DNA of 64,000 nt, taken from Escherichia phage HP3. The stretch lies in the sequence record NC_041919.1; one strand, written 5' to 3'. A model generated the notes under the pieces. That model had not been told where the DNA came from. It searched no databases and saw only the letters and a list, made by a program, of their open reading frames with translations. The position numbers and the translations under genes were made by a program. The first letter of the stretch is position 1, and each line of letters begins with the position of its first letter. Of this stretch, positions 55,968-56,985 are shown one piece after another.

Positions 55968-56040
55968 TGGGAATTAGCCAAGTTGGTAAGGCACTGGATT
56001 TTGATTCCAGGATGCAAAGGTTCGAGTCCTTTATTCCCAG
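55968..56040 (+). tRNA. tRNA-Gln (anticodon TTG)
   Basis: cloverleaf read by eye: acceptor tgggaat/attccca, anticodon loop ttTTGat, T-loop ttcgagt. Confidence 0.8.
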
Positions 56041-56041
56041 C

Positions 56042-56128
56042 GCGAGAATGGCCAAATTGGTAAAGGCACAGCACTTAAAATGCTGCGGAATGATTTCCTT
56101 GTGGGTTCGAGTCCCACTTCTCGCACCA
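56042..56128 (+). tRNA. tRNA-Leu (anticodon TAA), long variable arm
   Basis: acceptor gcgagaa/ttctcgc, anticodon loop ctTAAaa, T-arm tgggttcgagtccca, encoded CCA. Confidence 0.8.
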
Positions 56129-56133
56129 AATTT

Positions 56134-56207
56134 GCGGATATCGTATAATGGTATTACCTCAGACTTCCAATCTGATGATGTGAGTTCGATTCTCATTATC
56201 CGCTCCA
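56134..56207 (+). tRNA. tRNA-Gly (anticodon TCC)
   Basis: acceptor gcggata/tatccgc, anticodon stem tcaga/tctga with loop ctTCCaa, encoded CCA. Confidence 0.8.
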
Positions 56208-56217
56208 ATTTAATTTA

Positions 56218-56291
56218 CTCCGTGTAGCTCAGTTTGGTAGAGCGTCTGCTTTGGGAGCAGAATGTCGTAGGTTCAAATCCTGCCACGGAGA
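56218..56291 (+). tRNA. tRNA-Pro (anticodon TGG)
   Basis: acceptor ctccgtg/cacggag, anticodon stem tctgc/gcaga with loop ttTGGga, T-loop ttcaaat. Confidence 0.8.
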
Positions 56292-56293
56292 CT

Positions 56294-56383
56294 GGAGGCG
56301 TGGCAGAGTGGTTTAATGCACCGGTCTTGAAAACCGGCAGTCGCTCCGGCGACTCATAGGTTCAAATCCTATCGCCTCCGCCA
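56294..56383 (+). tRNA. tRNA-Ser (anticodon TGA), long variable arm
   Basis: acceptor ggaggcg/cgcctcc, anticodon stem ccggt/accgg with loop ctTGAaa, encoded CCA. Confidence 0.8.
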
Positions 56384-56388
56384 GTTTT

Positions 56389-56464
56389 GCTGATTTAGCT
56401 CAGTAGGTAGAGCAACTCACTTGTAATGAGAAGGTCGGCGGTTCGATTCCGTCAATCAGCACCA
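56389..56464 (+). tRNA. tRNA-Thr (anticodon TGT)
   Basis: acceptor gctgatt/aatcagc, anticodon loop ctTGTaa, T-arm ggcggttcgattccgtc, encoded CCA. Confidence 0.8.
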
Positions 56465-56465
56465 A

Positions 56466-56540
56466 GGCCCTGTAGCTGGAAGGTTCAAGCAAGCGACTCA
56501 TAATCGCCAGATGGTGGTTCAATTCCACCCAGGGCCACCA
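56466..56540 (+). tRNA. tRNA-Ile (anticodon CAT, presumably lysidine-modified as in T4; formally Met-like)
   Basis: acceptor ggccctg/cagggcc, anticodon loop ctCATaa, T-loop ttcaatt, encoded CCA. Confidence 0.7.
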
Positions 56541-56549
56541 AATTAATTT

Positions 56550-56636
56550 GGGGAGTTATCCCGTAGAGGTAGCGGTGTGGACTGTAAATTCATTGTCATT
56601 GCGACTCGGGTGGTTCGACTCCACCACTCCCCACCA
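56550..56636 (+). tRNA. tRNA-Tyr (anticodon GTA), long variable arm
   Basis: acceptor ggggagt/actcccc, anticodon stem gtgga/ttcat (two G-U pairs) with loop ctGTAaa, T-arm gggtggttcgactccacc, encoded CCA. Confidence 0.65.
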
Positions 56637-56640
56637 ATTT

Positions 56641-56715
56641 GGATGTGTAGCTCAATGGCAGAGCGATCGCCTGTTAAGCGATTGGTTATAGGTTCGAATC
56701 CTATCACGTCCGCCA
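56641..56715 (+). tRNA. tRNA-Asn (anticodon GTT)
   Basis: acceptor ggatgtg/cacgtcc, anticodon stem atcgc/gcgat with loop ctGTTaa, T-arm ataggttcgaatcctat, encoded CCA. Confidence 0.75.
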
Positions 56716-56829
56716 AATTTGTGACAACTGTCACATTAATATCTACTTGACGCGATTATAGGGGTTGAACTGATCACTCTTCTCTTAATTTCGTGTGAAG
56801 ACATCTTGATTGTTGGAGTAGGTATTAAT

Positions 56830-56905
56830 GTGGCCGTAGTTCAGTTGGTAGAACTCGAGATTGTGATTCTCGTAGTCATGGGTTCGACTCCCATCGGTCA
56901 CCCCA
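56830..56905 (+). tRNA. tRNA-His (anticodon GTG)
   Basis: acceptor gtggccg/cggtcac, D-arm gttcagttggtagaac, anticodon stem cgaga/tctcg with loop ttGTGat, T-arm atgggttcgactcccat, encoded CCA. Confidence 0.75.
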
Positions 56906-56909
56906 ATTA

Positions 56910-56985
56910 CGGGGCATAGCTCAGAAGGAAGAGCAAGGACCTTCTAAGTCCTAGGTCGTAGGTTCGATCCCTACTGCCTCGACCA
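56910..56985 (+). tRNA. tRNA-Arg (anticodon TCT)
   Basis: acceptor cggggca/tgcctcg, anticodon stem aggac/gtcct with loop ctTCTaa, T-arm gtaggttcgatccctac, encoded CCA. Confidence 0.8.

Follow-up and report, generated by a model that had tools for sequence, protein, structure and literature searches.

The tRNA gene cluster at positions 55968–56985 of the window, by which we mean the whole 64,000-nucleotide stretch of Escherichia phage HP3 (NC_041919.1) that was analyzed, raises the question of what genes for Tyr, Asn, and His tRNAs contribute to a phage that already carries the eight tRNA specificities of T4. A first-pass annotation of this DNA had proposed eleven plus-strand tRNA genes between these two positions, with tRNAscan-SE or ARAGORN as a check. 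An ARAGORN search of the whole 64 kb returned the same eleven specificities, Tyr, Asn, and His included, with the first gene starting at 55968 and the last ending at 56985, and no further tRNA genes. All of them, like every other feature described below, lie on the plus strand, and their anticodons in order are ttg, taa, tcc, tgg, tga, tgt, cat, gta, gtt, gtg, and tct. The first seven genes and tRNA-Arg follow the order annotated in T4, and Tyr, Asn, and His are absent from the T4 annotation, so that both of these earlier statements stand.

With the exception of tRNA-Tyr, the tRNA genes (10 of 11) scored above the gathering threshold of the Rfam tRNA model RF00005 (29 bits), with 59.9 to 74.1 bits and E values of 1e-10 to 1e-14. 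The cluster starts with tRNA-Gln (TTG, 55968–56041; 67.4 bits, CCA only partly encoded), tRNA-Leu (TAA, 56042–56128; 64.0 bits), tRNA-Gly (TCC, 56134–56207; 65.8 bits), tRNA-Pro (TGG, 56218–56292; 69.7 bits, without an encoded CCA), tRNA-Ser (TGA, 56294–56383; 62.6 bits), and tRNA-Thr (TGT, 56389–56464; 72.9 bits). These are followed by a tRNA with the anticodon CAT (56466–56540), tRNA-Tyr (GTA, 56550–56636), tRNA-Asn (GTT, 56641–56715; at 74.1 bits the best score of the cluster), tRNA-His (GTG, 56830–56905; 65.1 bits), and tRNA-Arg (TCT, 56910–56985; 66.1 bits, also placed by alignment). Neighboring genes are separated by 0 to 10 nt, except for a gap of 114 nt between Asn and His.

The CAT tRNA was called Met by ARAGORN in its default mode, and its homolog in T2L has been named tRNA-Met (PMC2330249). 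Its top full-length match in E. coli is an annotated tRNA-Ile (81.6%), which supports the earlier designation of this gene as Ile(CAT). The gene is identical to that of RB7 and is a different allele from the tRNA-Ile of T4 in the alignment; it is probably an Ile2-type tRNA that would be modified with lysidine and decode AUA.

The eleven-tRNA cluster is already known and is nothing new as a finding. Four Tequatrovirus records (OK076929, OK275722, OP978391, and OL631480) were 100% identical over 1201 bp, and the same tRNA genes are annotated in three of these four, with all eleven in OK076929. At least 80% of the query was covered by 345 records, the Tyr-Asn-spacer-His arrangement was present in 185, and about 185 to 195 phage records have this version of the cluster; since the cluster is already annotated in some 190 T4-like coliphages, it must be regarded as ordinary. 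The extension by Tyr and Asn was published in 2008 for T2L, RB1, and RB3, in which the tRNA-Asn gene contains the preferred homing site of SegB (PMC2330249). In the window, the interval from 56541 to 56909 consists of Tyr, Asn, a spacer RNA, and His, with no ORF and no segB in place, which identifies the cluster as the segB-free type of T2L and RB3 and not as a variant of the T4 type. The annotation of RB7 (KM606997) runs from Gln to Met, Tyr, Asn, Arg, rnaD, and rnaC, and a three-way alignment resolved the window into the RB7 cluster plus two insertions, one comprising the spacer and tRNA-His and the other a 116-aa ORF. We consider it very probable that this locus represents the common, segB-free form of the Tequatrovirus tRNA cluster, built from a ten-gene backbone and two insertions, and that the extra genes serve in the supply or replacement of tRNAs. 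The first insertion would be a module of a structured RNA of about 95 nt and tRNA-His, common to Jiaodavirus and Karamvirus phages, and the second a small ORF acquired between Arg and rnaD.

The flanks agree with the T-even cluster position, with a trna.2-type ORF upstream and rnaD, rnaC, and a terminator downstream. A possible T4 middle-type promoter was read by eye at 55874–55898, consisting of a MotA-box-like TGCTTTA, 12 nt, and TATTAT, an arrangement that presumably resembles the T4 middle-promoter consensus; this segment and the upstream flank of the cluster are invariant among T4, RB7, and T6. Downstream of tRNA-Arg, the 116-aa ORF (57004–57354) matched phrog_3355, of unknown function, with an E value of 5e-52. 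It is annotated as hypothetical in OK076929 and OK275722 and was found by alignment to be an insertion between tRNA-Arg and rnaD that RB7 and T4 do not have. Alignment with the annotated genes of T4 and RB7 placed a homolog of rnaD (T4 species 2 stable RNA) at 57352–57466, with conserved 5' and 3' parts and a replaced center, and a homolog of rnaC (T4 species 1 stable RNA), almost identical to that of T4, at 57473–57611. An intrinsic-terminator-like hairpin with a T run (57662–57685) has the same sequence as the one 3' of rnaC in T4 and recurs as an identical second copy at 58219–58242; it is likely to end the tRNA and stable RNA transcription unit. The array would be transcribed within one such unit, which would start at promoters 5' of Gln, include the ORF, rnaD, and rnaC, and stop at the terminator (57662–57685). 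Processing of the transcript into tRNAs would then depend on host enzymes, namely RNase P, 3' nucleases, and a CCA-adding enzyme; Gln and Pro are without a complete encoded CCA. This arrangement does not agree with the earlier proposal that Tyr, Asn, and His occupy the interval in which T4 carries RNAs C and D. The interval between Ile and Arg in T4 is occupied by segB, which encodes a GIY-YIG homing endonuclease, and T4 rnaD and rnaC are annotated 3' of Arg; because both RNAs are present 3' of Arg here as well, the added tRNAs are no substitute for them.

ARAGORN called all three added tRNAs, and Rfam supported Asn and His but rejected Tyr, a class II tRNA with a long variable arm, so that the first-pass models were only partly backed by both tools. 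The ARAGORN fold of tRNA-Tyr has an odd D stem with a noncanonical C.C mismatch, its top match within the Rfam clan was tRNA-Sec at 30.9 bits, under the threshold of 47 for that family, and the gene is labeled tRNA-Pseudo/OTHER in OK275722, as is a homolog in KR698074 (tRNA-Pseudo). Across homologs from T6, rV5-like, T5, FelixO1, and Jiaodavirus phages and from E. coli, pairing in the tRNA-Tyr cloverleaf came to 94%, and 12 pairs had both partners changed, a result matched by none of 500 shuffles. Additionally, the gene is identical in 87 of 87 nt to the tRNA-Tyr of T6, which is expressed, is seen on northern blots, and by its dose rescues T6 from the tRNA-Tyr–cleaving Septu system (PMC13096335). 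The T6 RNA is relatively unstable and still cut by Septu, and overexpressed phage tRNA-Tyr gives host tRNA-Tyr partial protection (PMC13096335).

For tRNA-His, the residue at position -1 (56829) is T and C73 lies at 56902, so that the encoded G-1 of the E. coli type is missing. The residue in question is G in E. coli hisR, and it is T in the tRNA-His genes of KpV477, PG7, and T5, as in the window. An encoded G-1 opposite C73 is the major identity element for HisRS (PMC4357726, PMC3245924), and efficient charging of this tRNA-His is thus not assured; our literature search found no publication on a phage tRNA-His without G-1. That Tyr, His, or both are decaying, nonfunctional pseudogenes retained through linkage alone, as the subthreshold Rfam score, the D-stem mismatch, and the two tRNA-Pseudo labels of the former and the absent G-1 of the latter could suggest, is nevertheless very improbable. 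The mismatch in Tyr is kept across phage families and the remaining stems covary, and the identical tRNA of T6 gives a signal on northern blots and can rescue T6 infection (PMC13096335). Moreover, the T5 record (NC_005859) describes a homologous tRNA-Tyr and a tRNA-His with T at -1 as convertible to effective amber suppressors, and the tRNA-His in the window is almost invariant across genera, with a single difference in 76 nt from that of KpV477.

The gap 5' of tRNA-His contains an unannotated, conserved structured RNA (56735–56829), recognized by folding, covariation, and homologs. Its predicted fold comprises a 14-bp closing stem reaching as far as position -1 of tRNA-His, a single long arm, and a 4-bp hairpin. 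The folding z score was -3.56 for the 95-nt spacer alone and -4.36 for the whole 114-nt gap, and eight pairs were changed on both sides, a number equaled by 0 of 500 shuffles (RNAalifold, pair counts). Homologs scoring 94 to 116 bits were identified in Jiaodavirus, Karamvirus, and one Vequintavirinae phage, and an Rfam search over 55800–57600 gave no match to the spacer at E ≤ 10. In a search for divergent homologs, a loose pattern applied to IMG/VR gave mostly chance matches that were rejected by the model and a metagenome scan returned known variants only, which leaves the long arm (P2) without support from covariation.

Four other identities for the spacer were considered and rejected. A decayed tRNA was not recognized by ARAGORN, which in bacterial mode returned nothing when its thresholds were relaxed and intron mode was used, and as a homolog of T5 RNA III the spacer reached a nonsignificant 7.1 bits (E 4.7) with covariance model R1. 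A hammerhead-like ribozyme had been suggested by eye from the motifs CUGAUCA and GAAG, but C would stand in place of the essential G8, and the Rfam ribozyme models gave no match. Finally, a consensus scan for a sigma-70 promoter found no plus-strand site inside the spacer. If it is a stable RNA, the spacer could shape the 5' processing or identity of tRNA-His or could be a decoy. The order of the spacer and a tRNA-His without G-1 parallels that of T5, where RNA III is followed by tRNA-His. For phage tRNA biology, it is this unannotated structured RNA 5' of tRNA-His and the absent G-1 that deserve attention.

With regard to function, the first-pass annotation presumed that the added tRNAs serve to tune how AT-rich late codons are translated in particular hosts. 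Codon compensation fits the eight T4-type tRNAs well, as these would provide decoders for A-ending codons that are heavily used by the phage and rarely by E. coli; the window ORFs contain, per 1000 codons, TTA 32.5, CAA 24.1, GGA 24.6, CCA 16.7, TCA 21.5, ACA 20.0, ATA 15.0, and AGA 10.9. The same check on codon usage divided the three additions, with Tyr accounting for 4.24%, Asn for 5.86%, and His for only 1.30% of window ORF codons, against E. coli values that we take to be about 2.8%, 3.9%, and 2.3%, respectively. Demand is thus raised for Tyr and Asn, and Asn is higher still in late-direction ORFs (6.31% versus 5.01%), whereas His falls below its E. coli share and does not differ between the two gene sets, and the rarity of its codons deprives the tRNA-His gene of any support from demand. 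A purely codon-tuning role for all three is possible but doubtful, given that GTA, GTT, and GTG are the anticodons of the only host isoacceptors and work best with C-ending codons, whereas about 75 to 78% of the corresponding phage codons end in T (per 1000 codons of window ORFs, TAT 33.3 and TAC 9.1, AAT 43.8 and AAC 14.8, CAT 9.7 and CAC 3.2). Codons in much higher demand, namely AAA (58.3 per 1000), GAA (60.4), and GAT (48.9), have no phage tRNA, and of the close relatives, RB7 manages without His, T6 has neither Asn nor His, and T4 lacks all three. Since the extra tRNAs share G34 anticodons with the only host isoacceptors and the phage prefers T-ending codons, supply is indicated rather than new decoding.

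In the favored reading of supply or replacement, the anticodons of Tyr, Asn, and His repeat those of the host, and the three tRNAs would raise or replace the corresponding pools during infection. For Tyr, the protective dose effect against tRNA-Tyr–cleaving Septu is experimental for the identical T6 sequence; for Asn and His, we infer the function. A rather unlikely alternative is that Tyr-Asn-(RNA)-His is mainly a counter-defense cassette of spare or decoy tRNAs with GUN anticodons, the queuosine family attacked by tRNases, and not a set of codon tuners. All three additions are indeed GUN tRNAs, and a tRNA-His without G-1 could still serve as a decoy, but the anticodon loops of Tyr, Asn, and His equal what we take to be the E. 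coli sequences and so contain no obvious escape mutation, which argues against this role. The identical T6 tRNA-Tyr opposes Septu by dosage, although Septu still cuts it (PMC13096335), and the tRNA-Tyr of T5 counters retron-Eco7 (PMC11555353). Genes for Asn, Tyr, and Asp tRNAs are adjacent in FelixO1, and those for Tyr, Asn, and Asp lie within one array in KpV477. However, our literature search found no defense system that targets tRNA-Asn or tRNA-His, and the tRNA-Asn of the T5-like phage SP15 gave no rescue from PrrC. Less probable still is the combined proposal that 56735–56829 represents an undescribed family of phage stable RNAs tied to a tRNA-His without G-1 and that the Tyr-Asn-RNA-His block serves counter-defense and not codon tuning. 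Supply together with counter-defense explains the extra tRNAs better than new decoding capacity does.

Comparison with known systems places the parts of this cluster in different phage groups. In T5 (NC_005859), the stable RNA III, which is about 106 nt long, has no assigned function, and folds with a long closing stem, lies directly against the 5' end of a tRNA-His that resembles the one described here in its T at -1 and C73; RNA III and the spacer agree in position and in the general architecture of a closing stem, without detectable homology in sequence or structure. The arrays of Jiaodavirus and Karamvirus phages (KpV477, NC_031087; PG7, NC_023561) contain a spacer and His module that is 88 to 89% identical, but there it sits 3' of tRNA-Gln, in far larger arrays with other neighbors. 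The T2L, RB1, RB3, and RB7 type shows the same ten-gene order of Gln, Leu, Gly, Pro, Ser, Thr, CAT, Tyr, Asn, and Arg and is free of segB. In RB7, identity to the window is almost complete from the CAT tRNA across Tyr and Asn to Arg, with a few differing positions and an identical tRNA-Asn; the spacer RNA and His, inserted between Asn and Arg, and the 116-aa ORF, inserted between Arg and rnaD, are additions in the window, which also differs in the center of rnaD. T6 (Chihara et al. 2026, PMC13096335) has its identical tRNA-Tyr likewise 3' of the CAT tRNA, but with segB immediately 3' of Tyr, with Asn and His absent from the examined stretch, and without Pro and Ser. As segB is absent here, the SegB-driven amplification of Tyr reported for T6 (PMC13096335) is impossible in cis. 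T4 (NC_000866) shares the site, the eight specificities and their order, rnaD and rnaC, and the terminator, and its Leu, Gly, and Ser genes are almost identical, although its tRNA-Ser has no encoded CCA, unlike that of the window. Compensatory changes in stems set its Gln and Pro genes apart (for Gln in the anticodon stem, the window gene being that of RB7), its Ile and Arg are other alleles, the window Arg being almost identical to that of RB7, and it carries segB between Ile and Arg without Tyr, Asn, or His. The eight-gene state of T4 probably reflects the position of segB, which sits where Tyr and Asn lie here, since SegB homes into the tRNA-Asn gene. The comparison has corrective value, as the eight-gene cluster of T4 is the variant that carries segB, in a family that commonly has ten or eleven tRNA genes.

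ARAGORN recovered exactly 11 tRNA genes in the whole 64-kb window, all on the plus strand and extending from 55968 to 56985. The first seven are Gln(ttg), Leu(taa), Gly(tcc), Pro(tgg), Ser(tga), Thr(tgt) and a CAT-anticodon gene, followed by Tyr(gta) (56550-56636), Asn(gtt) (56641-56715), His(gtg) (56830-56905) and, last of the cluster, Arg(tct), all on the plus strand. The cluster proposed in the first-pass annotation by manual folding, with its eleven specificities and its additional Tyr, Asn and His genes, was thereby borne out in every particular. The assignment of the CAT gene to isoleucine is supported by its best E. 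coli match, which is to genes annotated as tRNA-Ile (81.6% over the full length). Ten of the 11 genes also scored above the curated threshold of the general tRNA model of Rfam (59.9-74.1 bits), with tRNA-Asn the highest in the cluster and tRNA-His at 65.1 bits.

A 1201-bp query covering the cluster matched 985 records, 345 of them with coverage of at least 80%; identity was 100% in vB_EcoM_C2-3, HP3.1, HP3.2 and ECML-123-2 and at least 99.8% in about thirty further Tequatrovirus genomes. The Tyr-Asn-spacer-His segment reached coverage of at least 80% in 185 records, and the spacer by itself showed at least 95% identity in about 194. Because the C2-3 record also annotates the same eleven tRNAs at equal relative positions, the eleven-gene form is common and already annotated; it is a well-known and widely annotated feature of T-even phages.

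The suggestion that Tyr, Asn and His occupy the interval where T4 carries RNAs C and D proved wrong. The T4 record gives the order Gln, Leu, Gly, Pro, Ser, Thr, Ile, segB, Arg, rnaD, rnaC, the Ile-Arg interval holding the GIY-YIG homing-endonuclease gene segB and no small stable RNAs, and in the window the rnaD and rnaC homologues likewise lie downstream of Arg. The rnaD homologue (about 57352-57466, plus strand) keeps the 5' and 3' parts of T4 rnaD around a replaced center of ~45 nt that is unrelated to rnaD of T4 or RB7, and the rnaC homologue (57473-57611, plus strand) is nearly identical to that of T4. An adaptive SNP in rnaD of a different T4-like phage was described in 2025 (PMC12685909). 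Among the tRNA genes shared with T4, the Ile and Arg alleles are quite different, and Gln and Pro show compensatory stem changes. The T4 terminator hairpin is also present (57662-57685, plus strand). This hairpin, AGCCCCGACCGAAAGGTTGGGGCT followed by a T run, recurs at 58219-58242 (plus strand), and the two copies flank a 157-aa ORF (57738-58211, phrog_2280), which looks like a duplication of the terminator by insertion of the ORF.

A closer counterpart is RB7 (species Tequatrovirus RB3), annotated as Gln through Met(CAT), Tyr, Asn, Arg, rnaD and rnaC. In a three-way alignment, the window corresponds to the RB7 arrangement with two insertions, and its tRNA-Asn gene is identical to that of RB7. 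The first insertion (56719-56908, about 190 bp) carries the 114-nt spacer and tRNA-His. The second, of about 370 bp between tRNA-Arg and rnaD, carries a 116-aa ORF (57004-57354, plus strand, phrog_3355) that is absent in RB7 and T4 and runs with its stop codon into the start of the rnaD homologue. Since the spacer and tRNA-His also occur together in Karamvirus and in Jiaodavirus KpV477, where they are 88-89% identical and placed after tRNA-Gln, they were probably acquired as a single unit.

Brok-Volchanskaya et al. (2008) described T2L, RB1 and RB3 regions lacking segB and carrying tRNA-Met, Tyr, Asn and Arg, located the site that SegB prefers to cleave in the 3' part of the tRNA-Asn gene, and found that in T4 x T2L co-infection about 1250 bp with Met, Tyr, Asn and Arg was swapped for the T4 segment (PMC2330249). 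Thus, the eight genes of T4 represent a segB-carrying variant, and the Tyr-Asn pair is common in the family. In T6, segB directly follows Tyr. The T6-like phage Pu-Krd-SF5 (PQ759885) has an HNH endonuclease gene at the usual place of Gln, followed by Tyr-segB-Arg (HNH gene and segB-type gene at 685-1293 and 1943-2608 of its L005 stretch), indicating that homing endonucleases invaded the cluster repeatedly. Separately, a block with annotated tRNA-Tyr, tRNA-Thr and tRNA-Asn genes, ~83% identical to the Tyr-Asn pair of the window, is found on E. coli plasmids of ~72-110 kb (for example NZ_CP019027, about 109 kb, 104808-104966); the pair therefore circulates beyond T-even phages.

While both ARAGORN and Rfam backed Asn and His, tRNA-Tyr was called by ARAGORN and fell under the Rfam tRNA threshold, its best clan match being tRNA-Sec (30.9 bits, where 47 are required). 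Its cloverleaf has a C.C mismatch in the D stem and two G.U pairs in the anticodon stem, and the HP3.1 record annotates it as tRNA-Pseudo/OTHER. We aligned it with homologues from T6, a T6-like phage, an rV5-like phage, T5, FelixO1 and a Jiaodavirus, and with E. coli tyrT. Across this alignment, pairing of the cloverleaf reached 94%, and in 12 pairs both partners had changed, a result that none of 500 shuffles matched. The D-stem mismatch is kept across the phage Tyr genes and is therefore a family trait rather than decay. The T5 homologue is about 85% identical to the window gene, and its record notes that it becomes an effective amber suppressor.

The added tRNAs had been presumed to tune translation of AT-rich late codons. 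Across 63 long non-overlapping window ORFs (19,127 codons), the codons of the eight T4-type tRNAs occur per thousand at 32.5 (TTA), 24.1 (CAA), 24.6 (GGA), 16.7 (CCA), 21.5 (TCA), 20.0 (ACA), 15.0 (ATA) and 10.9 (AGA), and all eight are higher in late-direction ORFs. These values are ~1.6 to 4 times those of the E. coli codon table, so that the eight tRNAs fit classical codon compensation. For the additional three, the presumption holds in part. Tyr (4.24%) and Asn (5.86%) are used above the E. coli levels of about 2.8% and about 3.9%, and His (1.30%) below about 2.3%, so that demand in no way accounts for tRNA-His. Moreover, the anticodons of all three (G34) are those of the host itself, 75-78% of the phage codons in the corresponding boxes end in T, and AAA, GAA and GAT are in far greater demand yet have no phage tRNA; the three therefore add supply rather than decoding capacity.

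Counter-defense may offer a second role. Chihara et al. (2026) showed that Septu cuts tRNA-Tyr in the variable arm and also cleaves the expressed, relatively unstable tRNA-Tyr of T6; that over-expression or SegB-driven amplification of tRNA-Tyr rescues T6 and deletion of the tRNA region sensitizes it; and that T4, lacking Tyr, cannot escape (PMC13096335). The same principle was reported for T5 tRNA-Tyr against retron-Eco7 by Azam et al. (2024) (PMC11555353). Together with the codon counts, the T6 experiments favor a mixed explanation, in which a supply role is plausible for Tyr and Asn, and counter-defense is shown for the Tyr gene of T6, which is identical to that of the window over all 87 nt, but only conjectural for tRNA-Asn and tRNA-His. 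The three share a GUN anticodon and belong to the queuosine family. Such tRNAs form the target set of colicin E5, which provides a lead.

Only two features might merit more study, the structured spacer RNA and the lack of G-1 in tRNA-His. At position -1 (56829) the tRNA-His gene carries T, with C kept at 73 (56902), as opposed to G at -1 in E. coli hisR; this encoded G-1 is the major HisRS identity element (PMC4357726, PMC3245924). The Jiaodavirus, Karamvirus and T5 genes share the T, at which the T5 feature begins, and we found no literature on phage tRNA-His with T in place of G-1. The phage tRNA may keep U-1, may be poorly charged, or may not be meant for charging.

Folded as RNA, the 114-nt Asn-His gap (56716-56829, core 56735-56829, plus strand) reached -32.7 kcal/mol (z = -4.36 against shuffles). 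The predicted fold comprises a 14-bp closing stem, the 3' strand of which runs exactly to position -1 of tRNA-His, as well as a long arm of highly conserved sequence and a 4-bp hairpin capped by a 7-nt loop. Homologues occur in Jiaodavirus, Karamvirus and the Vequintavirinae phage W70 and score 94-116 bits with a covariance model, that of W70 preceding tRNA-Gln instead of tRNA-His. Across these phages and Tequatrovirus, the closing stem and short hairpin supply the covariation (8 pairs changed on both sides, equaled by 0 of 500 shuffles), and the predicted long arm is invariant among homologues. The spacer matched no Rfam family and is absent from the annotation of the phage records examined. 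As a candidate tRNA it was rejected, with no ARAGORN call even under relaxed settings. T5 RNA III, a 106-nt "stable RNA with unknown functions", has no detectable homology to the spacer and occupies a parallel position: it directly precedes tRNA-His, and its fold is closed by a stem of 12 bp. By analogy with T5 RNA III, RNase P cleavage at tRNA-His probably frees the spacer as a stable RNA.
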